Shown here piece by piece: positions 3,326 to 26,656 of a stretch of DNA of 29,722 nucleotides (position 1 is its first letter; every line of letters starts with the position of its first letter). A program made the position numbers and the translations under genes. Source of the DNA: a virus (lineage: Duplodnaviria; Caudoviricetes); the IMG/VR virus record IMGVR_UViG_3300017784_003818, positions 1 to 29,722 of that record; one strand, given 5' to 3'. A model generated the notes under the pieces. The model was given only the letters and a program-made list of their open reading frames with translations, was not told the DNA's origin and did no database searches.

Positions 3326-3348
3326 GCATAAGTGCCATTTTGAGTCAA
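3320..3348 (-). promoter_or_regulatory. sigma70-type early promoter
   Basis: TTGACT-N17-TATAAT; the -35 box contains the stop of the GIY-YIG gene. Confidence 0.8.
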
Positions 3349-3674
3349 CCGTTTGCTCGCACCCGCACATCAGTGTTCAGGTTGGGTGCAAGCTCGCGAA
3401 TCATCTCGCGTTCAGCAGCATGAGCAGCGGCCTTGCCGCGCAGCACGTCGATCACAAGAACTGCAAAGGCTTCAGTGCCCTGCTTGCGCATAGCTTCGTA
3501 CAGCAGCCAGCTCTTGTCCTCGCTACGTGAGCGATAGATGTGCTTGTTGAAACGAGTCTGCGCTGACTTCTGCACAGTAGTTTCAGTCTTTGCAGTGACC
3601 CCAATGTAGAAGTCGCTGCCCGAAACTAAGGCATACACAATGTGGGTACGATCTGAACGCTTTTTTCTAACCAT
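3345..3674 (-). CDS. GIY-YIG nuclease, catalytic domain only
   Basis: HIVY...FYIGVT, RFNKH, catalytic-type E in AAEREMI and C-terminal LN; 109 aa. Confidence 0.75.
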
Positions 3675-10337: not shown

Positions 10338-10730
10338 TCAACTTACTTCTCTTCGCCCGTTGCCTAGATTCCTACTGCGTACATAAGGTTGTGGGTTCAT
10401 GGCTTGTTCCTGCTCCCATGTTTCCATTACAACGTGTCTGCAGACATTCTGGAACCACCGGTCTACAATTTCCGAGTCAGTGTCCTCACGCTTGAGTTGA
10501 TATCCGGCACGCACTAGATTAGCAACAAACTTTTCATTCCAGTCGATTTCAAATGCACCCTGATGCAGATTTTCGGGATCGACCTCTAGTCCAAGGATTG
10601 CCACATACGGTTCTCCGCGTTCGGTGGCCAGCTCCTTGGGAGATTTCTTTGGTGCAGCAGCGGCCTTCGGAGCCTTTGGTGCTTCGGGCTCCGCTGGCTT
10701 TGTAAATTTTTTCTTCAGATATTCAAACAT
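10338..10730 (-). CDS. Conserved phage hypothetical protein
   Basis: Start MFEYLKK at 10730 (TGATG overlap with queE); GAFEIDWNEKFV, EIVDRWF. Confidence 0.7.
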   Translation of the reverse strand: MFEYLKKKFTKPAEPEAPKAPKAAAAPKKSPKELATERGEPYVAILGLEVDPENLHQGAFEIDWNEKFVANLVRAGYQLKREDTDSEIVDRWFQNVCRHVVMETWEQEQAMNPQPYVRSRNLGNGRREVS

Positions 10731-11587
10731 CAAGTGCCCCACTCGTTCTTGAACAGCGGCACTTGGAGCCGATCGCTATACCTTAGCCCATGTTTGATTG
10801 CAAATGCCGCCACGTTGCGATTGTTCATGCCGTACACCTTTTCTACCCCGCCAATGGGCATCAGGTAAGCAGGCCCTTTAAATCCAGCTGCACGGTAAAT
10901 CTCTATAACTTCTAGTGCTTCAGCAGCATCCTCTTCGGACGCAATTACAAACTTTAGATAGGTGTATCCTAATTTTTCGTATTCGCATACGACTTCAGGA
11001 AGAATAGCATCTTCTCTTGATTCGCCACTGACCCCAAGCTTGGCGCTGACACTAAATGTAATAGCGTTGTATCCGCGTTTCTTAATACCCCAATCTTCGA
11101 GATATTGTTTGAACTCACCGGTTAACTGTTGAGTACCATTGGTTTCAAACGTGATCTCTTTCAGTCCTTGCATTGACGAATGGTTCAACAAGTCTGGATA
11201 AGCACGTTGCCATCCCAGCAAGGGTTCTCCACCTGTGATAACCAAGTGTTCTTCACGCCATTCTTTGTGTGGCAGCATTTCACAAATGCTCTTGACAATG
11301 TCCTTGGTATCAATCACCGGGCTAAGATGCTTAAATGCAGGATCCCAAGACGCATAGCTGTCGCATCCGGTACTAACAAGAGGCAGTTCTTTGTAGTTAG
11401 CGTATGGACCAAAACTGTCTAAGGCAGCAATCTTGATACGCTCTTGGCTTTTCTCGCCACGCGGCATACCAAATCCGTCGCAGGTAAAGTTGCAACCGAA
11501 TGTGCGCAAGAAGATTGACGGCACCCCCATAAATTTTCCCTCTCCCTGAATTGAGTAAAATAATTCAGCTATCTTAATCTTTGACAT
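10730..11587 (-). CDS. queE: 7-carboxy-7-deazaguanine synthase QueE (radical SAM)
   Basis: ELFYSIQGEG, FLRTFGCNFTC...GCDS, VITGGEPLL, FETNGT, YSDRLQ; folE and queD are nearby. Confidence 0.9.
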   Translation of the reverse strand: MSKIKIAELFYSIQGEGKFMGVPSIFLRTFGCNFTCDGFGMPRGEKSQERIKIAALDSFGPYANYKELPLVSTGCDSYASWDPAFKHLSPVIDTKDIVKSICEMLPHKEWREEHLVITGGEPLLGWQRAYPDLLNHSSMQGLKEITFETNGTQQLTGEFKQYLEDWGIKKRGYNAITFSVSAKLGVSGESREDAILPEVVCEYEKLGYTYLKFVIASEEDAAEALEVIEIYRAAGFKGPAYLMPIGGVEKVYGMNNRNVAAFAIKHGLRYSDRLQVPLFKNEWGT

Positions 11588-12116
11588 TACAATATTCCGT
11601 TAATTCGTTTAATGATACAAACATTTTCTGGCATTCAAACCCTTCTTTTTTCCATTTACTATTTGGCATACACCAACTTCTAACAGTAGTATGATTGACT
11701 TTATAGAATTCTCCAGCGTGTTGCAATGATGGAAACATCCCATTAGGAGTTGTTACAAACATTTTCCAATTTGGACGATCGTTATGATTAATTTTAATTA
11801 TACTATCTTCTACGTCCGGTACGCTAAATTCTCTTTCCATATATCCTATTGCTTTTTTTAGGTATTCAACATTGTCTTGAAATTTTCCTAATGCCATATT
11901 ACAGTTTGTACACAACAATCCTCTAACTTTTTTAGTAGTATGACAATGATCAACTGCTAGTGCCCTATTACACGGTTCTGGTTTTTCACATATAGCACAC
12001 ATATAATTTTGTGATTTAGCAATAGCTTCATAATGATCGGCGTGTATTCCAAATTTTTTAATAAGATCTGATCTCTGTCTGCGTTTAATTGTTCTTTCTT
12101 TTGAATGTAGTTGCAT
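11574..12116 (-). CDS. Endonuclease VII-family (His-Me finger) free-standing homing endonuclease
   Basis: CAICEK...LAVDHCHTTKKVRGLLCTNCNMALG plus a C-terminal HTH-like domain; AT-rich; inserted in the queE 5' end. Confidence 0.85.
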   Translation of the reverse strand: MQLHSKERTIKRRQRSDLIKKFGIHADHYEAIAKSQNYMCAICEKPEPCNRALAVDHCHTTKKVRGLLCTNCNMALGKFQDNVEYLKKAIGYMEREFSVPDVEDSIIKINHNDRPNWKMFVTTPNGMFPSLQHAGEFYKVNHTTVRSWCMPNSKWKKEGFECQKMFVSLNELTEYCNVKD

Positions 12117-12123
12117 AATGTTC

Positions 12124-12152
12124 TCCTCACACTTATTTATACAGAGCGAGGA
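12124..12152 (-). promoter_or_regulatory. RBS-sequestering hairpin with late promoter TATAAATA (12134-12141) in the loop
   Basis: Minus strand TCCTCGCTCT-GTATAAATA-AGTGTGAGGA: 9/10 pairs (one G.U); the 3' arm carries most of the GAGGAG RBS. Confidence 0.8.
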
Positions 12153-12163
12153 TATATATACTT

Positions 12164-12217
12164 TTAATAGACGCCTTGGATGCTATAAAATAGTTCTGAG
12201 ATTTTAAGTTTGCTCAT
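12164..12217 (-). pseudogene. queE: Orphaned original 5' end of queE (17 codons)
   Basis: MSKLKISELFYSIQGVY* versus functional MSKIKIAELFYSIQGEG; ATGA-coupled to the upstream mazG-like gene. Confidence 0.85.
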
Positions 12218-12504
12218 TCTGTTGTAACGTCATGTGTAAAAATATTCGACCATTTATGCAGTTTTGCTCGTTTTTGGAGCGCAGCATCATATACTTTCTT
12301 TTCGCTGAGAACACCCATCTCCATCATCAACTGAAGCATGCAAAGCAAGTCACCTGCTTCTTCTTCAAGATGTTCCCGGTTAGTCACTCGTGCTTGTGGC
12401 TTGCAATTGTCAATCCCAAACCTAGAGCACTTGCTGACAGCTTGAATGACCTCGGCACATTCTTCTTGAAGAATGTTCATAACTTCAGTTTCTTTGGAAT
12501 TCAT
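12214..12504 (-). CDS. MazG-like NTP pyrophosphohydrolase
   Basis: ILQEECAEVIQAVSK...LEEEAGDLL (EExxE...EExxD). Confidence 0.85.
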   Translation of the reverse strand: MNSKETEVMNILQEECAEVIQAVSKCSRFGIDNCKPQARVTNREHLEEEAGDLLCMLQLMMEMGVLSEKKVYDAALQKRAKLHKWSNIFTHDVTTE

Positions 12505-12978: not shown

Positions 12979-13917
12979 TCAACGATTGAGCCATTCGGGA
13001 TTGTCCCGATACCACTGAATAGTGTGTGCTAATCGTTGATCGATTGCTGCTGGTTCTTGCCACCCTAGATCATATAGTTTACTAGGATCAATGCTGTAAC
13101 ACAAGTCGTGTCCTGGACGATCTATCGGAACTAATTTATATAGCAGTTCAAGATCCATCAAGCGGGCTATTTTTTGTGCAAACTCAAGGTTATCAATAAA
13201 TCTACTTCCGGCACTGTTCCATTTTTCACACTGTGTGGTCTGTGTTTGTAGAATAAATCTTGTGTGGCCGGCTACATCTCCAGCATACAACCATCGCCGC
13301 CCACCAATTACTCCATCTGTGCCCACGTGCAGGTTTATGGTCTGGCCTGCTAGCAATTGGCGCATGATTATAACTGGTAGCCGATTGCTTTGACAACGTG
13401 GGCCAAACGTGTTGTTGATGTGAATGATACTGACAGGAATACCAAACGAGTTGGCGTAAGATACGCATAGCTCTTCCCCGGCAGCCTTGGATGCTGCGTA
13501 AGGTGAGCGGCTATGGTAAGCATCGTTGGGCTGACTATCTTGCCCAACAGCAACAGGCCCAAACACTTCTCCTGAACTGTAGTACACAAATCGTTCAACT
13601 CGGTTATGCCGCGCATACTCTAGTAGATTTAATGTGCCTACTACATTATCCATGACCGACGCTGTGGGGTTGCTTAAACTGTCTGCTGCACTAGGGTTGG
13701 CGCCGGCGTGTAGTATTATGTCTGCTGCCGGTAGGCACAGACAAGAGTTTTTGATATCGTGCTCGATAATCTCAACCGCAGTTGCAATTTGTTGCAAGCG
13801 AGCCATGTTAGTGGTCCCGGGCCGAACTACACAAATCACAATGTGATCCTGTAGGAACTCTTCTGCTAGATAATGTCCAACAAATCCATTACTACCGGTG
13901 ATTAATACAGTTTTCAT
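12979..13917 (-). CDS. NAD-dependent epimerase/dehydratase (extended SDR)
   Basis: ITGSNGFVG, SSGEVFG, PYAASK (YxxxK), NTFGP. Confidence 0.9.
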   Translation of the reverse strand: MKTVLITGSNGFVGHYLAEEFLQDHIVICVVRPGTTNMARLQQIATAVEIIEHDIKNSCLCLPAADIILHAGANPSAADSLSNPTASVMDNVVGTLNLLEYARHNRVERFVYYSSGEVFGPVAVGQDSQPNDAYHSRSPYAASKAAGEELCVSYANSFGIPVSIIHINNTFGPRCQSNRLPVIIMRQLLAGQTINLHVGTDGVIGGRRWLYAGDVAGHTRFILQTQTTQCEKWNSAGSRFIDNLEFAQKIARLMDLELLYKLVPIDRPGHDLCYSIDPSKLYDLGWQEPAAIDQRLAHTIQWYRDNPEWLNR

Positions 13918-14588
13918 AAGCTGTGTGTGTAAACTTGATCGATATCGGATGCCATCACTTGGCTGTATCCCATGTCAATAAAAAATTTATCAAACTGCTT
14001 TTGATTTACGTTGTATCTGGCTGCCCAAGGGCTGTACCATTCTACTATAATCACTGGATGATATTTTTCTATTGTGTTCTGTGCACCCGTCAACGCAAAA
14101 TATTCATACCCTTCGATGTCCAATTGTATGAGACCACAGCCAGGCAGATTCAACTCGTCGATAATCACAGTTGGTACCACACCTTTGCCACCCACATGTA
14201 TTCCGCCGGCATCGGCAGTGTCGGCACCATGTTCTCTATATGTGTTTAATCCTACAAAATTCTTATTGTTGCCCACACAGGCCTGTGTTTTAATAACGTT
14301 AGTAGGGCAGTTCAAAGACAGACATACAAAGTTTAGTGGGTCAGGCTCAAAAGTATACACAGTGTCAAACAAATTTGCATATTGTCGTACATACTGCCCA
14401 CAATTGCCCCCGGCTTGTACCATGATGCTGCGATCAGATACATGACTCATTAGTGCGTCAAAAAATTCCTGACCCAATGGATACTGATGCATGTAGCTCC
14501 AGCAGCCCTGATCGTATTTTGGCCAGTACAGATTGCCTAACTCTGGTCTACTCGATACTCGCAGTTCTATTAAATCGGATATATTCAT
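13914..14588 (-). CDS. FkbM-family methyltransferase
   Basis: VQAGGNCG, YTFEPDP, IQLDIEGYE, GAQNTIEKYHPVIIVE. Confidence 0.85.
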   Translation of the reverse strand: MNISDLIELRVSSRPELGNLYWPKYDQGCWSYMHQYPLGQEFFDALMSHVSDRSIMVQAGGNCGQYVRQYANLFDTVYTFEPDPLNFVCLSLNCPTNVIKTQACVGNNKNFVGLNTYREHGADTADAGGIHVGGKGVVPTVIIDELNLPGCGLIQLDIEGYEYFALTGAQNTIEKYHPVIIVEWYSPWAARYNVNQKQFDKFFIDMGYSQVMASDIDQVYTHSL

Positions 14589-15064
14589 GATCTTCTAATA
14601 TTTAGATAACAAGGTTGGTTGTTGTACAAAAATTCTTCCCAGATTGATTCAAGTTCTTGCACAGTATCTGGTTGGTAAATCTTAATGTTGGGGAATACGC
14701 CGATAGCCCGGCCAGCGTCCTCGGCCCAGTGACTGAATCCCAAGTGCCCGTAGTCTTGATCTCGTCCTGCGCCTACTAGCTTTACTGGCGCAAGTTCGTG
14801 GTCTAGATAGTTACGAATCCACTCATAAGGACGAAACACTACAAATGGTGTGATGCTATAACAAATGGGAATTTTGCCACAGTGTGTGAGCCCCACAGCA
14901 GCACCTAGCATTAACTGCTCTGCTGCTCCAACATTGAGGGCACGATCCGGAGCTACCTGCCTTGATTTGTTCAGCACACCAAACCCTAAGTCGCCGGACA
15001 GCAACCACACGTTGGGATCTGTTACTAGTGTATCTGCCATGAGTTCGCCAAATCTATTTCTCAT
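14585..15064 (-). CDS. Transketolase-like pyrimidine-binding subunit
   Basis: LLSGDLG, NVGAAEQLMLGAAVGL, RPYEWIR, GFSHWAED; ATGA overlaps on both sides. Confidence 0.85.
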   Translation of the reverse strand: MRNRFGELMADTLVTDPNVWLLSGDLGFGVLNKSRQVAPDRALNVGAAEQLMLGAAVGLTHCGKIPICYSITPFVVFRPYEWIRNYLDHELAPVKLVGAGRDQDYGHLGFSHWAEDAGRAIGVFPNIKIYQPDTVQELESIWEEFLYNNQPCYLNIRRS

Positions 15065-15669
15065 AGTTTATCCATGTCCTCAGATTTTAACACATAGTAA
15101 TGTGTAAGGATGCCTTGAGCAAAAGGCCAACTTGGCGGTGTAGTGTTGCGTATGTTGATACGTGGCAAGAACGCTCGAAGACGTTGAATAATGTACTCGC
15201 GATCAATAAAATCATACGCAATCATGCCGTTAACATTAACGTATACTTCTAGGTTATCCAGCTGTGCTTCATAGATAAATCTCAGTGCTTCCCAGATAGA
15301 TCCCTCGCCGCACTCGCCGTCACTGATCAAACAATGCACACGACGACCACGATCAGCTAACGCATATCCGGTAGCCACAGTAAGCCCCATCCCTAGACTT
15401 CCGGTAGAGCACGGCAATCCATCTTCTGTGTTCCTATGCGGATGCACTCCGTGTTTGTGAAACAAGTAGTCGGCATCTTTACCTAGGTATTTTTCCAACA
15501 CCACGTACCAAGCCAGAGCTGCATGCCCGGAGCTCAAGATGAATGGCTCGTCGGCCTGCTTGTTTTTATAGATTTCTTCGATGATATTAACCGCATTCAA
15601 GTTTGAACTCAAATGCGATATTTTTTCTCGATAACTGATTTCTATTATTCTTTTTTCAACATCGTTCAT
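15061..15669 (-). CDS. Transketolase-like ThDP-binding (N-terminal) subunit
   Basis: SHLSS, ILSSGHA, STGSLGMG and the SDGECGEGSIWEAL...NVN ThDP motif. Confidence 0.85.
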   Translation of the reverse strand: MNDVEKRIIEISYREKISHLSSNLNAVNIIEEIYKNKQADEPFILSSGHAALAWYVVLEKYLGKDADYLFHKHGVHPHRNTEDGLPCSTGSLGMGLTVATGYALADRGRRVHCLISDGECGEGSIWEALRFIYEAQLDNLEVYVNVNGMIAYDFIDREYIIQRLRAFLPRINIRNTTPPSWPFAQGILTHYYVLKSEDMDKL

Positions 15670-16985
15670 AGATACAGGCTCATGAACCCATCGACCTTCT
15701 CGCCAATGTATTTGATTTGTTCCGGCGTAATAACCGGGCTACATCCATGGAAGTACGTGTTCTTCATTGTGAATGTGGCCACAGGGAAGTTGTCTCTGGC
15801 TGCTGCCGGATCCATCAAGTGACTATACGCTGGCTGCAACATGATGTTGCCGGCAAAGTAAGGTCGGGTTTGAATTAGATTTTCTTCAAGATAGTCCACA
15901 ATGTCCATGCGTGTAAACGGTACACCCTCACGGATAGTCAGCGGGAAAGCAAACCAGCTTACATCTGCTTTGTCCTGAGCACGGGGCAGGTGGAAGAACT
16001 CTTCGTATTTTTCATAAATTGCAAACAGCAGATCATAGTTGCGTTGACGTAGTGTGTGAATTTCTGGCAACTTCTTGATCTGTTCTAGCCCCATGGCTGC
16101 TTGCAGCTCGATGGGCTTCAAGTTGTAACCAATCTCGTCGTACACATACTTGTGGTCAAATATCACGCCTGGCATCTCGGGAATCCACTCGTTGAATCGT
16201 TTGCCACAGGTGCCACATTTTAACTTATTGGCCTCGGGACCTACACAATAGCAGCCCCGTCCCCACTCACGTAGAGAACGAACAATGATCTCTTGGTCGG
16301 GATCGTTTAGTGCAACAAATCCACCCTCGCCCATGGTCATGTGGTGCGCTGGATAAAAACTACAGCTGGCCATTTCGCCAAAACTGCCCAAGGGTTGACC
16401 ATCGTATGTTGTGCCTAAGCCATCACAGCAGTCCTCTAGCAGCACAAGCGAGTACTTGCGGACCAAGTCCATAACACGGTCCATGTTAGGAGGGTTGCCT
16501 AGCACATGAGCAAACGTGATAATTTTGATATCTGGATCAGTTGCAAGAATCTGTTCTGCTTGATCCAAGTCAATGTTCAGAGTGTCAATTTCAATATCGC
16601 AGAACACAGGTGTGAAATTGTTCTGAATAGTTGGATTCAACGTTGTAGGGAATCCTGCAATAGGCATCAGTACCTTGGTTCCGGTAGGGAAGTTGTATCC
16701 GCGCTTGGACTTCATTGCGGTCATCATGAGCAGGTTGGCGCTGCTCCCGGAGTTGGTCAGCACACCACGAGTCTTACCAAACTCTTTCGGAAACGTTTGC
16801 TCAAACTCTAAACTCTTGTTACCCATAACAAGCCAACCGTTGAGCAGTACTTCTGCTGCTGCCACATACTCCGAAGAGTCAAAATGCGGCCCTGCATAGT
16901 TTACAAAGTCTTTACCTGCGACCCAGGTTTTGTCTGTTTGTTTATTATCAATATATTTTTTAATATCTTCTAATATTTGTTTCAT
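15666..16985 (-). CDS. rfbH: NDP-4-keto-6-deoxyglucose 3-dehydrase (E1, DdhC/RfbH-like; PMP and [2Fe-2S])
   Basis: NSGSSANL, EDCCD, SFYPAHHMTMGEGG (His replaces the Schiff-base Lys), WGRGCYC...C, DHKYVY..IGYNLK. Confidence 0.88.
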   Translation of the reverse strand: MKQILEDIKKYIDNKQTDKTWVAGKDFVNYAGPHFDSSEYVAAAEVLLNGWLVMGNKSLEFEQTFPKEFGKTRGVLTNSGSSANLLMMTAMKSKRGYNFPTGTKVLMPIAGFPTTLNPTIQNNFTPVFCDIEIDTLNIDLDQAEQILATDPDIKIITFAHVLGNPPNMDRVMDLVRKYSLVLLEDCCDGLGTTYDGQPLGSFGEMASCSFYPAHHMTMGEGGFVALNDPDQEIIVRSLREWGRGCYCVGPEANKLKCGTCGKRFNEWIPEMPGVIFDHKYVYDEIGYNLKPIELQAAMGLEQIKKLPEIHTLRQRNYDLLFAIYEKYEEFFHLPRAQDKADVSWFAFPLTIREGVPFTRMDIVDYLEENLIQTRPYFAGNIMLQPAYSHLMDPAAARDNFPVATFTMKNTYFHGCSPVITPEQIKYIGEKVDGFMSLYL

Positions 16986-17719
16986 ATTTTAATTAAAAGT
17001 TGATTGCACATTTCTCTCATAATGTTTATTACAGCTTGACTACCACGACTGCCATGAAAATGTAATATGTGAGCCTGCTTTATATGTAAAGCATTCCATT
17101 CATTGTGCCAATCTATTTGCCAATCTATTGCCTGTTGGTCCGTGACTCTTAAATTCATTGCTTGATAGGCCATCTCTGGATGTAGTCTGTCAGAGTTCGA
17201 AATATTTTGACTCCAAAACATGGCATTATGTCTTAACTGATCAAACCCCCAATTACGGTCTGGGTGAGTTTCTCTTTGAGTCAACCACTCTTCGCCCAAT
17301 TTCCATACATCGGTTGACATGGTGTGTGGATAATATTGTATATCATCGTTGTAATAGTGTGCAAAATCTTTATAACTTTTTGGATCTGTATAATTGAACA
17401 ATCGGTATTGAGAGAACCTGTCAGAAAACAACTCTGTGGGCTGGATCATAAGTGTGTCGGCACCTGCCCAAAATATGTTGCAAGTTTCTTTGTGCCACAA
17501 TTCTTTGATATCTAACCAATTTTGATAGGTGCAAGTATCGCTATTGGTAGCAGGATCAGTCCACAATACTACTTCAAACGGTTCTTTTACAAAGTGTCGA
17601 AAACTGGCTAATCTTAAACGATACATTTCTTGATAGTCTAAATGCAGTTGTGCACTGTTTCGATACATCCAGTTCTCTGATATAGGGCGAACTGAACATA
17701 CTAGATAGTTCTTTACCAT
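16982..17719 (-). CDS. Putative GT-A (GT8-like) nucleotide-sugar transferase
   Basis: IFWAGADTL (DxD variant), FDQ and C-terminal HILHFHGS; sugar-operon context. Confidence 0.5.
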   Translation of the reverse strand: MVKNYLVCSVRPISENWMYRNSAQLHLDYQEMYRLRLASFRHFVKEPFEVVLWTDPATNSDTCTYQNWLDIKELWHKETCNIFWAGADTLMIQPTELFSDRFSQYRLFNYTDPKSYKDFAHYYNDDIQYYPHTMSTDVWKLGEEWLTQRETHPDRNWGFDQLRHNAMFWSQNISNSDRLHPEMAYQAMNLRVTDQQAIDWQIDWHNEWNALHIKQAHILHFHGSRGSQAVINIMREMCNQLLIKI

Positions 17720-18663
17720 ACAAAATTATTCCTATAATTCTCGACTATTTGTTCTAGTTCTTGGTCAAAACAGGCCACTGGTGACCAACCTAATTTTTTT
17801 AATTTGCTGTCATCGATAGCGTAGCGCACATCCTGACCACGTCTTTGACTGTCAGTGATGTAATTCTCCCAGCAATCTTCAGCACCGTTGCCGGGAAAGT
17901 GATGTAAAATCTTTTTAATAACATCTCGATTGGGCATTTCTGTGTTGCCTGAAATGTTGTAGATTTCATTAATGCTGCCTTGATCGATAAGAGTTATAAC
18001 TGCACGAGCAGTATCATCGGCATGTAACCAAGTTCGCACAGGATTACCGCGATCATGTAGGTCGATCTTCTTCCCTAGTGTGAGATACTTGATCGACTTT
18101 GGAATTAGTTTCTCTACATACTGCCCAATGCCATAGTTGTTGGTTGGGCGCACTATAATGTACTTGATACCAAAGGTTCTGTTCCACGCCAACACCAGCA
18201 TGTCAGCCGCAGCCTTTGATGCCGAATATGGATTCGATGGTCGTAACATATCTTGTTCAGTATGTGCACCCGAATTGATATCTCCATAGACCTCATCGGT
18301 ACTAAATTGCAAAAACACCGGCGCTTTGTGACTGGGTTGTTGCTTGATTAGTTCCAGCAAGTGATGTACCCCGTTGATGTTGCTGCGGATGAAAACTTCC
18401 GAGCTCATGATGGAGTTATCTACGTGTGTTTCTGCAGCCGTGTTAATAAAATAGTCGCAGTCAACCAATCGGTCTAAGTCGTTGATATCAGATTTGATAA
18501 ATTTGAACGTGGGATACGTTTCAAACTCAGTCATGAAATTACAATTACTGGCGTAAGTGCAACTATCTACCCCAATCACATACCATCCGAGGTCTAGGCA
18601 TTGACGTGTCACGTGCGATCCTATAAACCCCAAACATCCGGTCACGTAGACAATTTTCTTCAT
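17713..18663 (-). CDS. rfbB: dTDP-glucose 4,6-dehydratase-like SDR
   Basis: VTGCLGFIG, AAETHVDNSI, STDEVYG, PYSASKA, NNYG, GQDVRYAID. Confidence 0.9.
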   Translation of the reverse strand: MKKIVYVTGCLGFIGSHVTRQCLDLGWYVIGVDSCTYASNCNFMTEFETYPTFKFIKSDINDLDRLVDCDYFINTAAETHVDNSIMSSEVFIRSNINGVHHLLELIKQQPSHKAPVFLQFSTDEVYGDINSGAHTEQDMLRPSNPYSASKAAADMLVLAWNRTFGIKYIIVRPTNNYGIGQYVEKLIPKSIKYLTLGKKIDLHDRGNPVRTWLHADDTARAVITLIDQGSINEIYNISGNTEMPNRDVIKKILHHFPGNGAEDCWENYITDSQRRGQDVRYAIDDSKLKKLGWSPVACFDQELEQIVENYRNNFVW

Positions 18664-18675
18664 AATGTACTTATA

Positions 18676-19497
18676 TTATATCGACGGGGTCGATAGATGT
18701 TTGTTCACATCTGCAGCTATCATCCGCTCCCAGGGCAGTTGTTTTCCTTGTGCCACACTCGTCCAATAACTCATATCATAGCCCTGTGATATAAGATAAT
18801 TGCCGATTGTTTGGGCTTCTGTTAACCGTTGTTGACGTCGCGGCACATAGTTAAAATCTCGCGGATCCGATGGTTTACCTTCGAACACTATTCTCTTCCT
18901 GAAGGTAGCGTCGTTGTTTTTTCCGGTAAGGTCGTATCGTTCGTGGTCCACATGTACGTCAATTTTAACCATGATATCCAACAGCCAGGCTACCTGACTC
19001 ACCCAGGCATCGTTCAGCTGGTGCTGACTAAAGTGCCCAATCAGTTCAAGCCATTTGCGAGGCACAATAGGGAAAATGCTGTAAGGGTGTTTGTTGTGTG
19101 TTTCGAATGCCTGCAAACAAAAACGGTCACCTTGGTTTTTGATCGTTGTGTCCCAATTTGTAGTACGCATTATTGCGTCGTCATTCCAAAACACCATCCA
19201 TTTGCCTGTGCTGGTGTGTGCAAGTTGGTTCACATATTCGTGCAGTCGAGCGTAGCCCATTGGCTCAAAGCCAAGGCAGGTATATTTTGCCCCGGACTCT
19301 TGAATTTTAGGTAGAACATGGGATTGAAAGTATGCAAAACTTTCGGCATCATCGTTGTCAAACCCAAAGCACCACTGGATGTCAGCTGGCTCTTGTGCAA
19401 GGTTGATCAAACTTTCGATACTGCGCTTTAACTGTTCAGTTCGTCCCCGTGTGGGCAATAGGATACTGATGCCCGGTACTACAGTATCCGAAATCAT
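18676..19497 (-). CDS. Glycosyltransferase family 2
   Basis: ISILLPTRGR, GFDNDD, VFWNDDA. Confidence 0.8.
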   Translation of the reverse strand: MISDTVVPGISILLPTRGRTEQLKRSIESLINLAQEPADIQWCFGFDNDDAESFAYFQSHVLPKIQESGAKYTCLGFEPMGYARLHEYVNQLAHTSTGKWMVFWNDDAIMRTTNWDTTIKNQGDRFCLQAFETHNKHPYSIFPIVPRKWLELIGHFSQHQLNDAWVSQVAWLLDIMVKIDVHVDHERYDLTGKNNDATFRKRIVFEGKPSDPRDFNYVPRRQQRLTEAQTIGNYLISQGYDMSYWTSVAQGKQLPWERMIAADVNKHLSTPSI

Positions 19498-19979
19498 GCG
19501 TCGGCAAACTCGTTGTCTTCTCGATGCCCTTGCCGACCTGCCATGTTGCTATCGGTTTCCCGCACTTCGACCTTGCAGCACCAGACTCGTGCAGCCTCTG
19601 TACTGCCGCAGTTTGGTAGAAAGATAGTGTTGACGTACTCGTACAAAAAGTCAGCAAGGCCCTCACATCCGGTCTTTTCCACTTCTGTAATCTTGGCCAG
19701 TTTAAGTCTACCAAGCTCCAACAAGTGGTCACGCATGGGATCGTCTTGCGCAACCAACAAGGTATGGTCGAACCAGTTTTCAAGCTCGTCCTTTAAGGGC
19801 TTTAGACCGCCAAAGTCAGTGCACCAGTTACGTGCGTCTAAGGTGTCGCATTCAAACTCAAAGTGAAAGCTCATGGCATAACCATGAATTAGATTGCAGT
19901 GACTATCTGCCCTCCATTGCCGATACGCTACTGGGCCAATTTGCTTGTAAGTTTTTGTACTAAAATACTTTTTTGCCAT
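19494..19979 (-). CDS. queD: 6-carboxy-5,6,7,8-tetrahydropterin synthase QueD
   Basis: HCNLIHGY, DFGGLK, FDHTLL, GCEGLA, VEVRET. Confidence 0.88.
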   Translation of the reverse strand: MAKKYFSTKTYKQIGPVAYRQWRADSHCNLIHGYAMSFHFEFECDTLDARNWCTDFGGLKPLKDELENWFDHTLLVAQDDPMRDHLLELGRLKLAKITEVEKTGCEGLADFLYEYVNTIFLPNCGSTEAARVWCCKVEVRETDSNMAGRQGHREDNEFADA

Positions 19980-19990
19980 GCTATTCTCCC

Positions 19991-20203
19991 TTAGTTATCG
20001 AGATCCATCTCGCCGGCTTCTTTAACAAGAGCTAGCACTTCTTCGAGACTATTACACAAGATCTTGGCATTGACATAGTCGCCCTTCTTATTCCGGCCGC
20101 CTGCGTCTACCATAAAGCCATTGTCATACCGATTAACTGTGTATGATTCACTTATTTTGGTTAGCTTATCGCTAAGTTTGTTTACTGATTTTGTTGTTGA
20201 CAT
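19991..20203 (-). CDS. Hypothetical protein (70 aa)
   Basis: ORF fills the gap between folE and queD, with a purine-rich RBS. Confidence 0.7.
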   Translation of the reverse strand: MSTTKSVNKLSDKLTKISESYTVNRYDNGFMVDAGGRNKKGDYVNAKILCNSLEEVLALVKEAGEMDLDN

Positions 20204-20245
20204 AGTTTTCTCTCTTGCTAATTTATCTATTCTACTATTAGATGA

Positions 20246-20938
20246 TTAGTTCCTGTGACCTTTCATACTCAAGCAGATATCGTAAAATTCTTTCTTCAAT
20301 GCAGGATCCTTCTCAAATGCACCCATCATGATTGCTGTGGTCATATCACTAGAGTGTTCCCGTACGCCGCGTTGTGTCATACAAAAATGTTCTGCTTTGA
20401 CAACAATAGCAATGTTATCGGTCCTGGCATATTGTTTCAGTGCGTCGGCAATTTGTGTGGTCATCTCCTCTTGAATTTGAGGGCGCTCGCAAATATGATG
20501 CACCAAACGGTTGAACTTGCTCAACCCAATCACTTCGGTGTCGGGCACAATCCCGACCCAGCAGCTACCCACAATGTTTTGAAAGTGGTGGGCGCAGGTG
20601 CTACGAATAGAAATAGGCCCTGTAGTGTACAAGCTCTTATATCCCATGTTAGGGAAAGCAGTGATCTTGGGCACCGGACGATAGCGTCCACTGAAAGTTT
20701 CCTTTACGAACATCTTGGCCACGCGGCGTGCAGTGTCGTGTGTGTTGTGATCGTTTTCAGTATCAATCACCAAAGAGTCAAGTACGCCTTGCATTTTTGC
20801 AGCCACCTCATCAACAAGGCCTTCAAGCTCACCTTCGTGTACAAATTCGGCAATATTGTCATTGCTGTGAAAACGGGCGCCGGCTGCGTTGATACGGGCT
20901 CGGATTACTTGGGATAGATTGCGTTCTAGTTGGGTCAT
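20246..20938 (-). CDS. folE: GTP cyclohydrolase I
   Basis: TARRVAKM, STCAHH, IGLSKFNR, PQIQEEMT, AEHFCMTQRGV. Confidence 0.95.
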   Translation of the reverse strand: MTQLERNLSQVIRARINAAGARFHSNDNIAEFVHEGELEGLVDEVAAKMQGVLDSLVIDTENDHNTHDTARRVAKMFVKETFSGRYRPVPKITAFPNMGYKSLYTTGPISIRSTCAHHFQNIVGSCWVGIVPDTEVIGLSKFNRLVHHICERPQIQEEMTTQIADALKQYARTDNIAIVVKAEHFCMTQRGVREHSSDMTTAIMMGAFEKDPALKKEFYDICLSMKGHRN

Positions 20939-20982
20939 ATATGTTTGTTGGTTAAGATTAAGAATGGATACAGAATGTATCT

Positions 20983-21011
20983 ATTATACAGGTTATTTAG
21001 ATAAATGTCAA
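20983..21011 (-). promoter_or_regulatory. sigma70 promoter with nested late-type TAAATA (20994-20999), upstream of folE
   Basis: TTGACA-N17-TATAAT exact; the spacer contains CTAAATA and the -35 box contains the upstream stop. Confidence 0.8.
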
Positions 21012-21586
21012 CTAACAAAATTAATTTGCCGCAAGTCCGGATAACCCGCTTGCTGAGATAGTGGCTGAATGGTTGGCAGCAAGTTACTTCCCCGCTTACA
21101 ATCTTCAAGGGTCGGGCAATAGTGCCACCCTGGGCCGAATGTTGATTGAGCTTGCCAAGGAGCAATTGCTAGGTCTCGACCATCGCTGCGCATACGACTC
21201 AACTGTGAGTATGCTGGCTTGTCGTCAAGCAAGATAGCTCCGCATTTACCAATAGTCATGGGCTTACTGTGTCCGAAACTCAAGCATTGTACTTGGCCTG
21301 TGCGGTACATTCTGGGTTCAAGGCGCCGCGCTGAATCCCAGATGTTTGTGCCATGGAATTGATATTCACCTTGCCAAGCTTCATCAGTTAGGGTATATTC
21401 AATTCCCAAGTTAGCTAGGCATTGCGGTATACTAATATAGGTGCGGGCAGTGAATTCACACTGCCCGACTTGATACCATCTCATAGCTAGTTCAATGGCA
21501 TGGGTACATCCGTCTGTAACTACTACATAAGGTGCACCTGTGTACTCGGCTAATTCTCGTTCAAAACGGAACAGACTGTCAAACAT
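21008..21586 (-). CDS. Compact DegT/DnrJ/EryC1/StrS PLP aminotransferase-like protein (192 aa)
   Basis: FERELAEYTG, VTDGCTHAIELA, IWDSA, CLSFGHSKPM (Lys retained), GKCGAIL. Confidence 0.75.
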   Translation of the reverse strand: MFDSLFRFERELAEYTGAPYVVVTDGCTHAIELAMRWYQVGQCEFTARTYISIPQCLANLGIEYTLTDEAWQGEYQFHGTNIWDSARRLEPRMYRTGQVQCLSFGHSKPMTIGKCGAILLDDKPAYSQLSRMRSDGRDLAIAPWQAQSTFGPGWHYCPTLEDCKRGSNLLPTIQPLSQQAGYPDLRQINFVS

Positions 21587-22526
21587 TATACCAAGACCAA
21601 GCGTGTGAAATCATATCGTCAAGAGTAAATTTCTGCCAGCCTTTATAGATTCTTCCAAATTTATCTGCACTAGCAGTAAGTACATCTGGATCCCCAGATC
21701 TGCGTGGCCCTGTTGACACCTGTAATTTTTTTCCAGTAATGTGTTCGGCTGCATTAATAATTTCTAAATTACTAGTGCCCTTGCTTGTTCCGAGATTATA
21801 TACGCCAGCAGGCATATCATCATATAATGCACTCACATGCGCATCAGCAATGTCTTGCACATGTACATAATCTCTCACACAACTACCGTCATCTGTAGAA
21901 TAGTCTGCACCATTTAAAATAAATGGCTTGTTATCTCGAATACTCTCCAGCACTCTTGCAATAATATGAGTAGCCCCAGGTTCTTGTCCGTGACGACCAC
22001 TCATATCTGCGCCGCAAGCATTGAAGTATCGAAAAGAAACATAGTCGAGCCCGTATGCTTTGCAATAACTTTCTAATACCTGTTCGACCATAAGTTTGCT
22101 CTCACCATATGGACTAATTGGTTCACGCGGATCAACTTCATGACATGGATTCATGATCGGTGTCCCGTATACTGCTGCCGATGAACTAAAGATAAACTTA
22201 GTTTTTGGTATTGCTTGCAACATAAAGTCCAACAGATGTATGGTCTTAACTACATTGTTATTATAGTACTCGCACGGAGTTGACAGACTTGGACCAACCA
22301 AGCTTGTGCCAGCGCAATGTATGATAGCATCTGGCCGCGCCTCGAGCAACTGTTGTTTAGCAACATCACTATCGAAATCTGCCTGGAGAAAACTCATTAC
22401 ATCTTTGTCAAAATGATCCGGCAAGGGCCGACGATCAATGCCAATGACCGTGTGCCCGGCATCTTTAAGACGTAATGCAATATGACCACCTATGTATCCA
22501 GCGGCACCAGTTACTACAGTACTCAT
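21579..22526 (-). CDS. galE: UDP-glucose 4-epimerase
   Basis: VTGAAGYIG, SLVGPS, FSSSAAVYG, PYGESK, RYFNACGA, DGSCVRDYVHVQD. Confidence 0.9.
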   Translation of the reverse strand: MSTVVTGAAGYIGGHIALRLKDAGHTVIGIDRRPLPDHFDKDVMSFLQADFDSDVAKQQLLEARPDAIIHCAGTSLVGPSLSTPCEYYNNNVVKTIHLLDFMLQAIPKTKFIFSSSAAVYGTPIMNPCHEVDPREPISPYGESKLMVEQVLESYCKAYGLDYVSFRYFNACGADMSGRHGQEPGATHIIARVLESIRDNKPFILNGADYSTDDGSCVRDYVHVQDIADAHVSALYDDMPAGVYNLGTSKGTSNLEIINAAEHITGKKLQVSTGPRRSGDPDVLTASADKFGRIYKGWQKFTLDDMISHAWSWYNV

Positions 22527-23734
22527 GCTTCGATCTTAACCACAGGATACTTGGCGTGTGCGACATGATCTCGATACCTGGGACCAACACGCCGCCACTG
22601 TTCGCCTTTGCCTTTGTCCTCGAGGATATCCACAATGCGATCCACAGTGCTGTTGTTCCAATCAGAGATCAGGCCCATGTTGTGATGTGGTTTTTGCAAC
22701 AAGCTGGTAAGCTTGTTGAACGCATCATCTTCACTCCAGGGCACATACAAACGGTCCGGATCATTTGCAAACGTTTCCGGAAAACTGCGATAAGCTGGAT
22801 ACAGTACATTGCATCCTAGCGTGTCTGCTTCGCTTACAGTGTTGCTGACCCAGTCTTGCAAGGCACAATTAAACAGTACTCGAGTATTATTCAGCAGTGC
22901 ATAGTAATCATTCTTGCCGAGGTTCTCGTGAATTTCAAGCAGCCCTTGTTCCTGCATGGCTCTGGCGCGGTCAATGTATCGAGGGTTGTTGCTGCGCATC
23001 GGCCCGCCTGAAAACACAGCAAACTTGACTTGCGGGTATGTTGCTTGATACTCCTGCGCCAGATCCATAAAGAAGTCTGGTTGTTTCTCTTGGTCAAACC
23101 GTGCAGCAAATCCAACACGAAGATCTCGCGATTTGAACGGAGCAACATTCTCGGCACCACCAATGCGTTCTAGCACTTCTTCCTTGCCAAACGCCAGGCC
23201 ACTGATGTTGTAGATCGGGGCCTTCCATCCAGCAATACGCATGTGAGCAACCATCTCTTCGTTGGTAGCAAGCACACCGGTTACAAATTCATTAACCATC
23301 TTCTCGTATGTGCTCATCCATCCGGCCATACCCCATACATGAACAAAATCATCGGGGTCAATGGCTTGTGCAAGACAGCGCACATAGATTCGAGGACGCA
23401 TGTTGAGCGGCACTTGATCCAGGATGTAAGGCAAACTTTCAATGCCGGGTTGAAACATGTCCTCAAAGTAGATGACATCTTCGTTAGTGACATCACCACT
23501 GCGCATCATTTGCACCAAGTTCATCATCTGGCTCAATGAGAAATAGCTGCGACCGTGTGCATCCAGCACCTGGCCCACACTGATGCTTTTGGTGTTGTCA
23601 ATCACCGATCCAGGCACGTACACAACATCAAGTCCGCGGCGATCAAATACTCGCCGATTCCACTCTGTGAGTTGAAGTGTGTAACGAGCCTCGTAAGCCT
23701 CCAAGCCCATGTAAAACAACTTACGCACTGGCAT
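22523..23734 (-). CDS. GT-B fold (GT4-like) glycosyltransferase
   Basis: Start likely ATG 23734 after AGGA; FAARFDQEKQP, QDWVSNTVSEADTLG, YRSFPE. Confidence 0.8.
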   Translation of the reverse strand: MPVRKLFYMGLEAYEARYTLQLTEWNRRVFDRRGLDVVYVPGSVIDNTKSISVGQVLDAHGRSYFSLSQMMNLVQMMRSGDVTNEDVIYFEDMFQPGIESLPYILDQVPLNMRPRIYVRCLAQAIDPDDFVHVWGMAGWMSTYEKMVNEFVTGVLATNEEMVAHMRIAGWKAPIYNISGLAFGKEEVLERIGGAENVAPFKSRDLRVGFAARFDQEKQPDFFMDLAQEYQATYPQVKFAVFSGGPMRSNNPRYIDRARAMQEQGLLEIHENLGKNDYYALLNNTRVLFNCALQDWVSNTVSEADTLGCNVLYPAYRSFPETFANDPDRLYVPWSEDDAFNKLTSLLQKPHHNMGLISDWNNSTVDRIVDILEDKGKGEQWRRVGPRYRDHVAHAKYPVVKIEA

Positions 23735-23963
23735 ACTTCCTAAACACGCGATCTTCGGGCTTGCGACCGTCAATCACCCACATGTCCTTGGCAGCTTTGT
23801 TCTGCTGGTTCTTGGTGAATTGTTGATAAGCATAGCTCTTCCAATTGTAGAGATCGGATTCGTCGTACATGTATCCGAAGTCTTGGCAAAATTCCAAGTA
23901 CTGATCCAAATCATCAAAGATTTGGTGGACACGGGGGTTAGGTTCAAAAACAGTTTTAGCCAT
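23721..23963 (-). CDS. Hypothetical protein (80 aa)
   Basis: IFDDLDQYLEFCQDFGY.YDESDLY; overlaps the start of the glycosyltransferase. Confidence 0.7.
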   Translation of the reverse strand: MAKTVFEPNPRVHQIFDDLDQYLEFCQDFGYMYDESDLYNWKSYAYQQFTKNQQNKAAKDMWVIDGRKPEDRVFRKYASA

Positions 23964-24930: not shown

Positions 24931-25139
24931 CGCCGGTCCTCCGAGCCAAGATCTACCCGCTGGTTATGTTCGTGTTGTTGACGACGCAGAAACCGTAGTT
25001 CGTCAAGCACAGCAAGCCGCCGTTTCTTAAGTTCTGATATCTGATGGTCTTCGAAAACGTTGTTCTTTTCCATAGCATCGACCCGATTATCTAGATCGGC
25101 GTGCACGTTTTCTAAGTGTCGAATTCTAGTTTCATACAT
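24927..25139 (-). CDS. DUF465/YdcH-like coiled-coil protein
   Basis: HADLDNRV...ISELKKRRLAVLDEL. Confidence 0.7.
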   Translation of the reverse strand: MYETRIRHLENVHADLDNRVDAMEKNNVFEDHQISELKKRRLAVLDELRFLRRQQHEHNQRVDLGSEDRR

Positions 25140-26656
25140 TATACACTGTCCTCAAGTTGATCAAGTCGAGATTGATCAAGTTCATCTGTAAGATCTTCCT
25201 CGACTACGCTGAATAAATTGTTATACTGAGTATGAGCGTTGACTGCTCGTTTTCCTGTGTACCCACGGGTTCCCACCACCCGTTCCCATACTTTAGCATG
25301 TCCGTCGATAATTTCCAAGCTCTTTTGGCGATCACGGGCAGAAAATATTCTATCAATTAGGTTAGTAACATTGAATGCTTCAGATATTGGATGTACCATC
25401 ATATCTGGGTAAACACCCGAATCACACATTCGATTTGCTCGTTGTACCGATTCTAAATGCATCCAAACATTATGTCCCATAAGCAAGGCGTAGCTGAAAC
25501 TATCCCAAGATGTGCGGCCTTCCTTACCAATCTTATTTAGGTCGCCGGGCTGGTAACAGCAAACATCACTAATTTTTAACCTACTGGTAATGGGACTGTC
25601 TTCGAATTTAGGATGGATTCCATCTTGCCGAACTGCATTACCAAACATACGAGAATCAGTAGAGTACTTTTTATCGTCTACCGTAGGACTCATGTTGTAG
25701 GACCATTTGCCCCTGCTCTCTGTGGTGATGTTATGGTATAATTGCCCGTTGGCTGTGGCCAAGAAGGGCGACGCACAGTCGAAACTAATTGTGAAGTTGG
25801 GATTGTGATAGTACCGAATTGAACGTTGAATGGCTGTGAGTAATACTGCCCATTCCAACTTCGATGTTCCCAAGAAATGCATCCAGTCATGTTGTCCTTT
25901 TTCTAACAATCCATCATGTATCAAGTGCACCAAGCGTTTAAGCACCAGGTGCGAATCGCACATGTTTTGCCCTCCCATGGCCCAACCATTAAAGGCATTT
26001 TGGTGCAGGCCAGGATCAGAATAGCCCTTCATCATGTCGTACCAATGATCAGCTTCGCTGTGATTGCTACCCTGCAACACGTTTAGAATCTTGGTCTTGC
26101 CATACCGATTTGCCATCCAGTACTCGTTGTTGTACTTAGAAGCGTTGACTGCATCATCATAACTGTGGATCCCGCACAGCACAGATGCTTCCTTGTCCAG
26201 GTAGGTCCAGGTAGGGATATCCATGGTCATTGCATAGTCAGCAATTTGACATTGCCACTCGAGCACTTGTCTGCGTTTCTTCTCTGCATTCAAGTCTGCA
26301 GGGTTGGCCCATTGTCCGGGCCACACGCCCTTGGCAATCTGGAATCCACCCGAGTCCAACAGCATGAAGCTGTCAGGATCTCGATCCCGTACCATGTCTT
26401 CCTTGGCACTGGGCTTGGTCATGTCAAGATTGGCGTGACCTGCACTGTAAAGACTCCAGCGATACGGGAACAGTGCCTTTTGTGGATTCAACCAGTTCAG
26501 TTGTTCCATCTCGGGAATACCCGCAGGCATGCGAGTCTGTTCTACATACGTGCCGGCACGTTGTTTGCCAATATAGCTGCCATAAAAACTGGAGATAGCT
26601 GGCAGAAAAATAGCGTAGTCGTTCTGCTTGGCAGTTAGGTCGTCTTGTTCAATCAT
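25139..26656 (-). CDS. dpdA: tRNA-guanine-transglycosylase-fold protein, DpdA-like DNA base-exchange enzyme
   Basis: LDSGGFQ, MTMDIP, NVLQG, GWAMGG, MHFLG, SFDCASP align with TGT motifs including the catalytic Asp residues; next to replication and deazaguanine genes. Confidence 0.8.
   Translation of the reverse strand: MIEQDDLTAKQNDYAIFLPAISSFYGSYIGKQRAGTYVEQTRMPAGIPEMEQLNWLNPQKALFPYRWSLYSAGHANLDMTKPSAKEDMVRDRDPDSFMLLDSGGFQIAKGVWPGQWANPADLNAEKKRRQVLEWQCQIADYAMTMDIPTWTYLDKEASVLCGIHSYDDAVNASKYNNEYWMANRYGKTKILNVLQGSNHSEADHWYDMMKGYSDPGLHQNAFNGWAMGGQNMCDSHLVLKRLVHLIHDGLLEKGQHDWMHFLGTSKLEWAVLLTAIQRSIRYYHNPNFTISFDCASPFLATANGQLYHNITTESRGKWSYNMSPTVDDKKYSTDSRMFGNAVRQDGIHPKFEDSPITSRLKISDVCCYQPGDLNKIGKEGRTSWDSFSYALLMGHNVWMHLESVQRANRMCDSGVYPDMMVHPISEAFNVTNLIDRIFSARDRQKSLEIIDGHAKVWERVVGTRGYTGKRAVNAHTQYNNLFSVVEEDLTDELDQSRLDQLEDSV

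Follow-up and report, generated by a model that had tools for sequence, protein, structure and literature searches.

An endonuclease VII-type gene within queE of freshwater phages belongs to a mobile cassette with its own queE start, likely a homing element

WHO elements, which insert into FBA1 in Torulaspora and Lachancea, invade a coding gene with neither an intron nor protein splicing and carry a resistant piece of the host gene; according to the accessible part of the text (PMC7282813) the displaced piece stays behind as a fragment, proposed to serve as a second homology arm, and allele-specific cleavage is demonstrated. The queE locus described here mirrors this arrangement at the 5' end: the host gene has had one of its ends replaced, and the old end persists as a fragment, here called the stub. 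It would act like a WHO element without being a member of that group. WHO proteins are intein-like with zinc fingers and swap about 400 bp at the 3' end in diploid yeast (PMC7282813, same portion of text), whereas here the protein is of the Endo VII type, the target is queE and the swap comprises ~65-90 bp at the 5' end. Unlike in WHO, the new start overlaps the endonuclease gene and no upstream gene is common to the hosts.

Mobile-ORF hybrids of fungal mitochondria (Glomus atp6, atp9, cox2 and nad3) are similar in that an endonuclease ORF brings a foreign gene end. The available sections of PMC3630166 report that the foreign end of Glomus atp6 is 63.5% identical in nucleotides and 91% in amino acids, the differences being mostly synonymous, and that the native end is displaced and matches relatives; an Allomyces atp6 hybrid is cited there. 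These hybrids replace the C-terminus, in an organelle, by means of LAGLIDADG or GIY-YIG enzymes and, in those sections, with no target residue mapped, whereas the 5' end is exchanged here.

Among phage enzymes, F-CphI/DHHRN has the Endo VII catalytic motif with all named residues in a free-standing gene, as does the gene described here (PMC6083498, in the text excerpt at hand). Its motif is C-terminal and a group I intron protects its own target, whereas here the motif is N-terminal and accompanied by a helix-turn-helix (HTH) domain, and protection would come from the carried gene start; the catalytic family is shared, the architecture is not. The same excerpt places N-terminal Endo VII motifs mostly in a resolvase clade, which counts against a homing reading. 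T4-type seg and mob genes and Aeh1 mobE home without an intron and with co-conversion, as proposed here, and a late promoter combined with a ribosome-site hairpin, predicted here, is described for I-TevI-III, segB and Aeh1 mobE (PMC2988022, accessible text). T4-type enzymes are intergenic and cut hundreds to thousands of bases away (PMC2988022, same text), whereas here the inferred cut would lie at most ~15 bases from the insertion and a stub remains. HEG-islands of ICP1-like phages contain small gene fragments beside phage endonucleases, suggested as substrates for later homing; they are multi-gene islands, and the part of the text available mentions no replacement start, empty allele or target site (PMC10055350). 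Our literature search, with most subscription journals and supplements outside its range, found no description of gene-start replacement by a phage homing endonuclease, nor of homing into queE.

Anatomy of the cassette and origin of the stub

The window, which is the whole 29,722-nucleotide stretch analysed, carries an interrupted queE on the minus strand. Two further records (L001 and L008) are identical to it across the junctions, and runs X2 and X3, neither of them the run that may be the source of the window, contain contig pieces without any difference from it. Downstream of a mazG-like gene of the host flank (12214..12504; PF03819) is the stub ORF MSKLKISELFYSIQGVY, 17 codons and a stop (12217-12164), whose ATG overlaps the mazG stop as ATGA; in empty alleles, which have no endonuclease gene, the queE ATG shows the same overlap. 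The endonuclease ORF of 180 amino acids (11574..12116; Endonuclease_7, PF02945, E 1.6e-23) begins 47 bases past the stub, and these are the only non-coding bases in the insert. A complete queE of 285 codons (11587-10730), the start of which reads MSKIKIAELFYSIQGEG, overlaps the last 14 bases of the endonuclease ORF, whose final codons also encode it. The queE ribosome site is weak, which counts against the explanation that we favour below. The queE product matches PHROG 2076 (QueE-like, E 2.7e-48), and NCBIfam QueE models hit it under their cut-offs. The endonuclease gene and the replacement 5' end are AT-rich (GC 0.32 and 0.29), compared with 0.47 for the remaining queE.

The insert comprises 630 bases (12171-11542) and lies 46 bases into queE, its first non-queE base being 12171. 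The 46 bases before it (12172..12217) correspond to codons 1-15 and the first base of codon 16. Searching for related loci yielded 65 queE loci, and we examined the 57 with a 5' end. In six of them (L002-L007, 94-95% amino acid identity) mazG is joined directly to queE and there is no endonuclease. The stub matches the first 45 bases of these alleles at 45 positions in L006, 44 in four others and 43 in L007, and its 46 bases are identical to the first 46 of L006. The stub-and-restart pattern is therefore not a chance resemblance: the host gene originally began with the stub sequence, and the second copy is of foreign origin. This is what the original prediction expected of relatives in which mazG directly adjoins queE. 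It had also expected endonuclease-free relatives to lack the stub, and a second, upstream copy of the 5' end was found at none of 256 such loci, against 8 of 10 endonuclease-bearing ones. The screen took in 287 queE loci, 266 of them with the queE 5' motif, and 17 of the 256 had less than 300 bases upstream; the queries were element-bearing QueE proteins, and 10 of 266 is no population frequency.

Over codons 1-15 the stub and the replacement share 13 residues, the exceptions being residues 4 and 7 (L4 and S7 in the stub, I4 and A7 in the replacement), and 28 of 45 bases, while just three codons are identical (ATG, GAA and TTT). Our recount of residues and codons agrees with the earlier one, and the 17-codon stub coupled to mazG through ATGA is exactly as described there. 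The prediction also spoke of a recoded replacement N-terminus. The replacement 5' end is indeed foreign; judged from base matches, it is better understood as part of a lineage of 5' ends carried by the element than as a recoded copy. Over 45 bases, replacements match empty alleles at 30.6 positions on average, empty alleles match one another at 34.5 and stubs match empty alleles at 33.8. The stub matches its own replacement at 30.4 of 45, no lower than the 30.6 of any empty allele with any replacement.

The span predicted for the element stopped at 11543, in codon 15 of queE. The locus was right, and this boundary has to be moved: the foreign tract reaches at least codon 21-25, possibly 31. 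The replacement shares codons up to 21 with the element in L085, its nearest relative, codons 30-31 differ from all six empty alleles, and the sequence is host-like from codon 35. From the comparison with L085 and the empty alleles, we assign codons 1-25 (11513..11587) to the element-borne 5' end, codons 16-25 of which (11513..11542) would form the resistant version of the target; the host-derived queE body (10730..11494) is 94-95% identical in nucleotides to empty alleles.

Family, insertion site and sideways transfer

Retrieval by the endonuclease gave 160 loci. Leaving out 115 that match the nuclease domain only and 10 repeat records, we analysed 35, which represent 26 distinct elements. 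All 25 distinct members with downstream DNA overlap the start of queE, and the hosts of the family differ in their upstream genes. Optional presence at one fixed site, together with empty alleles, is what characterizes a homing element. Four more distant members (L466, L472, L486 and L488) also lie directly before queE; L466 is the cultured Rhizobium phage RHph_I1_18 (MN988519.1), whose endonuclease is 39% identical. About 90 protein clusters cover most of the endonuclease query, and many of them appear to end in residues that can be read, from the protein alone, as a queE start in another frame. A subfamily ending in NVWN or NVRN was considered as targeting an amidotransferase and was dropped, as the one locus read (L472) precedes an MFG-type queE. 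L493, a nuclease-domain match that is not before queE, and L082 and L083, domain-only matches in other contexts, were not retained as members. At L466:2456-3902 the 'hypothetical' EVB91_067 is queE, in a frame that extends ~190 bases further upstream than annotated; its likely start reads ATT, behind AGGAG in the last codons of the endonuclease, and is either a rare start or a sequencing error. Over 11485-12205, X2 and X3 contain two element versions in the same samples, one identical to the window and one ~89% alike.

The left boundary of the cassette is marked by a motif of QG-V codons followed by an early stop (12164..12178), present in 23 of 29 family loci at 56-65 nt before the endonuclease start, with 0.26 expected by shuffling, for a motif defined only after the loci had been inspected. 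It resembles the QG-E codons. Shortened stubs meet it either after codon 3-5 or ahead of the ATG, as expected if the motif serves as microhomology. In L486 and L488 it forms part of a hairpin 5' arm; in L486 this is a near-perfect 19-bp hairpin of -34.5 kcal/mol, 75 bases before the endonuclease start, with the IQG-V motif in the 5' arm.

Between the motif and the endonuclease gene, an RNA hairpin (12124..12152) is predicted in which the endonuclease ribosome-binding site (12128-12123) is paired. Its stability is -15.3 kcal/mol (z -3.63), none of 200 shuffles is equally stable and relatives show similar stems. The hairpin loop holds the octamer TATAAATA (12134..12141), which resembles the T4-type late-promoter consensus. 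Of 25 family loci, 24 have the form [T/C]ATAAATA at 14-21 nt upstream of the ATG, mostly in a stem that pairs the ribosome site. A transcript starting behind the octamer has no predicted structure. By prediction, the leader thus has the late promoter inside a ribosome-site hairpin that is characteristic of T4-type regulation. The window contains two copies of the octamer, the other one (4803-4796, minus strand) just before a radical SAM/SPASM ORF (4791-3799).

The endonuclease of L085 is 91% identical in amino acids to that of the window, yet the host queE bodies are only 64.5% identical in nucleotides, compared with 94% between the body in the window and empty alleles, indicating that the cassette moved sideways. 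High identity to L085 extends from about stub codon 12 through the endonuclease to about replacement codon 21, as in lateral transfer of a homing element with co-converted flanking DNA. A contig of run X22 matches 11730-12217 with 19 differences and then continues into different upstream sequence. On a 61-row tree of QueE bodies, 8 gains or losses of the element are needed, at least 6 of them forced by well-supported branches. The element is clustered on this tree (8 changes against a shuffled mean of 17.8), so inheritance plus loss may account for part of the pattern. Stub distances follow those of the host body (Mantel r 0.50, p 0.01, n=10), not those of the endonuclease (r 0.22, p 0.15). 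For replacement 5' ends at 21 loci the correlation with the endonuclease (r 0.31) is about equal to that with the host body (r 0.28) and the test does not discriminate; in the 10-locus subset these ends correlate with neither.

Proposed homing cycle, target site and alternatives

We consider it highly probable that boundary motif, hairpin, Endo VII-type gene and queE 5' end together form a mobile cassette in queE, which needs no splicing and likely spreads by homing. Its anatomy, its presence or absence in near-identical phages, lateral transfer, the fixed site, an intact catalytic motif and purifying selection support this directly. The intron-less, intein-less invasion with its own queE start that had been predicted stands, given the stub codons in empty alleles and the lack of any stub at the 256 endonuclease-free loci.

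In the proposed cycle, the endonuclease would be expressed late, early transcripts hiding the ribosome site in the hairpin. In a co-infecting phage it would cleave an intact queE near codons 17-20, and the cassette would be copied into the break during repair. The right arm of the recipient would recombine within queE codons ~22-35 and so acquire the changed target of the donor. The left arm, in phages sharing no upstream gene, would pair with the stub of the donor or with the QG-V motif and remain as the new stub; the stub is the likely left homology arm. queE would then be translated from the start embedded in the last codons of the endonuclease. Finally, recombination between stub and replacement could remove the cassette and leave an endonuclease-free allele with a changed target.

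Alleles of this last kind may exist. Five of 172 empty alleles (L006, L341, L377, L293 and L284) bear an element-type tract. L006 consists of the 46 bases of the stub joined to the next 41 bases of the window, with no mismatch over 87 bases. Compared with an element allele, L006, L341 and L377 agree at all 36 bases of codons 16-27 and at only 21 of 36 in codons 2-13, and L293 and L284, which carry M20I, agree at 34 of 36. These alleles likely arose by recombination between stub and replacement or by partial conversion. An ancestral origin of L006 seems less likely, given that the distant element in L085 has the same codons 18 and 21.

We tentatively suggest, with a little less confidence than would make it our expectation, that phage homing has a third route in addition to introns and inteins. 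A miniature copy of the target at the left end would let the cassette enter phages that share no upstream gene. Each entry would leave a stub through which exact excision later becomes possible and immune alleles arise, substitutions of Met20, otherwise nearly invariant in a base-modification enzyme, would have been forced repeatedly, and many 'intergenic' free-standing endonucleases would represent late stages in which the stub has been lost. The family seems to include every stage of a homing cycle in uncultured freshwater phages (empty, with full stub, with short or lost stub, and endonuclease-free with the tract), and suggests how invasions within genes come to look intergenic and how a selfish gene can alter a conserved residue of a host enzyme. 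It also provides a predicted 30-base target for an uncharacterised Endo VII-HTH enzyme, with a distant member in the cultured RHph_I1_18, and cautions that phage ancestry is not reflected in the 5' ends of such queE genes.

The most serious alternative accepts the same homing element and differs in detail only: an ordinary free-standing gene upstream of queE, for which the stub and the synonymous differences would be passive, the replacement being the allele of the donor and the stub a scar that plays no part in later homing or loss. We regard this as somewhat doubtful, though a real contender. The left ends divide, at 25 loci, into 13 with a full stub of 15-17 codons and 12 that are shortened, partly deleted or absent, and the four most distant relatives examined have no full stub; a stub is thus not required, which weighs against the favoured explanation and for a passive scar, as does the match of stub to own replacement being no lower than the general one. 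A passive scar fits less well with the 13 full stubs, the boundary motif kept in 23 of 29 loci, the L006 allele that joins stub and element tract without a mismatch over 87 bases, and the replacement start built into the last codons of the endonuclease in 25 of 25 loci.

As regards the target, the evidence points to a site over codons ~14-25 with a cut within codons 17-20, a placement that we think probable. Met20 is retained in 168 of 172 distinct empty alleles and in 9 of 24 element alleles, in a set of related alleles whose counts are not independent, such that Fisher p-values overstate significance. Its substitutes are four residues, Ile, Gln, Leu and Ser, on separate branches of the endonuclease tree (FastTree). 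Of 134 columns that are at least 95% conserved in empty alleles, one alone stands out: Met20 differs in 15 of 22 element alleles, compared with 4 for the next column. L185 differs from its nearest empty alleles, over codons 15-21, at codon 20 only. The window allele keeps Met20 and is changed at codons 18, 19, 21 and 23-25 (R18K, Y19F, V25I and silent changes relative to five of the six close empty alleles); since it and eight other element alleles keep Met20, any resistance there would have to rest on neighbouring changes, a point against the favoured explanation. We found no single DNA motif that separates all element alleles from empty ones.

The original prediction placed the target near the IQG/EG junction, and the neighbourhood holds, while the cut itself is likely to lie just downstream, from G17-M20 onward. 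A cut at or to the left of that junction, with Met20 changes as hitch-hikers, is in our judgement unlikely. Such a cut would explain why 9 of the 13 full stubs break off at codon 16, ending in IQG-V, and it is in keeping with Gly15 being GGA in 20 of 24 element alleles against 32% of empty ones. In break repair, recipient DNA survives only as far as the cut. The other four full stubs (L090, L092, L099 and L100) keep E16 and three stubs retain GEG, implying a cut at or to the right of codon 16-17, and neither the single difference in L185 nor the outlying position of Met20 fits a cut at the junction.

The protein itself carries PF02945 at residues 20-94 of 180, with a complete CX2-4C, DHxH, R, CX2C, N motif (C40, C43, D56, H57, H59, R65, C69, C72 and N73). 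All 10 aligned members have D56, H57, H59, R65, N73 and the four cysteines unchanged, and in a set of 86 these residues are conserved to at least 90%. Each of 6 pairs shows purifying selection, with dN/dS of 0.04-0.17. The sequence aligns to T4 Endo VII and Hpy99I. Using a structure model of pLDDT 89.9 (a fold from a 10-sequence alignment, pLDDT 56.9, was set aside), residues 114-164 modestly resemble the DNA-binding domain of I-TevI (Z 5.0, rmsd 2.3, 47 aligned), and the C-terminal domain modestly resembles that of I-HmuI (Z 4.2, rmsd 3.8, 58 aligned). Foldseek with this model returned nothing at E <=0.001, the best being Hpy99I at 0.075, and an HTH atlas score of 0.77 is a lead only; this modest HTH match tells against the favoured explanation. 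The protein is therefore predicted to combine an N-terminal Endo VII (DHHRN) domain with a C-terminal HTH resembling the DNA-binding domains of homing endonucleases.

This architecture bears on an origin without homing, in which a phage resolvase or accessory nuclease would have been acquired through chance recombination or a local duplication; we consider this very improbable. An N-terminal Endo VII motif as in T4 gp49 and strong purifying selection would suit it; the gp49 match, though, covers only residues 11-86 of 157, not the whole length, and the C-terminus is like homing-endonuclease HTH domains. A T4 endonuclease VII resolvase would be a core gene, whereas this gene is absent at the locus in six near-identical phages. 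PF02945 is lacking in two of three near-complete element-free jumbo genomes and below cut-off in the third, which speaks against a core resolvase role. A resolvase would not explain the same site in distant hosts with different upstream genes, nor would local duplication yield a copy 89-91% like the element of a distant phage.

That the insert is an intron or is bypassed by ribosomes, with stub and body forming one product, we discount almost completely: stub and body do stay in frame across the 630 bases, and L006 is a natural instance of the joined form, but no Rfam intron family, and so no catalytic RNA core round the ORF, was matched at E up to 5, there are only 47 non-coding bases, the 12 loci without a full stub still have a complete queE, and the replacement supplies a full 5' end, in frame and starting from a codon of its own. 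Nor does the arrangement correspond to an intein, as the stub has a stop and the endonuclease its own start and stop. The stub-to-body joint was not seen in four DNA runs and is not among the contigs listed for four RNA runs, whose small shares are too thin either way. The X22 contig, which may be DNA, runs unspliced from the stub into the endonuclease.

Phage context and base modification

Among 24 listed runs, 13 hold at least half of the words of the window, and all are freshwater or lake samples. Related queE loci lie on contigs of 345-385 kb. As folE, queD and queE are all present in the window, it is plausible that queE here serves DNA modification; no DpdA/TGT-type inserting enzyme was confirmed beside them. 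An ORF of 505 amino acids (25139-26656, minus strand) gave an atlas lead of 0.93 to a TGT-like cluster (17% PF01702) and had no match in Pfam, NCBIfam, PHROG or PDB; PF01702 was found in 0 of 5 related genomes. The ORF is present in all five related jumbo genomes (41-55% identity) and is 35% like a protein of PA5oct/Paride-type phages. It is possibly a DpdA-type enzyme.

Other observations in the window and its relatives include the following. At G004:C1:163205-164836 the relative of the 505-amino acid ORF matches in two pieces within one frame of 568 amino acids, suggesting a short in-frame insertion. A GIY-YIG-like ORF of 109 amino acids (3345-3674, minus strand; PHROG 5123, E 3.9e-7) consists of the nuclease domain only. 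Sugar-nucleotide, glycosyltransferase and methyltransferase-like ORFs, recognized mostly by eye, are interleaved with queD and folE at 12979-23773 (minus strand). QueE of the window has C32 and C36, no third cysteine at the usual spacing and a conserved GCDS at C75, an atypical cluster motif that is common to its relatives.
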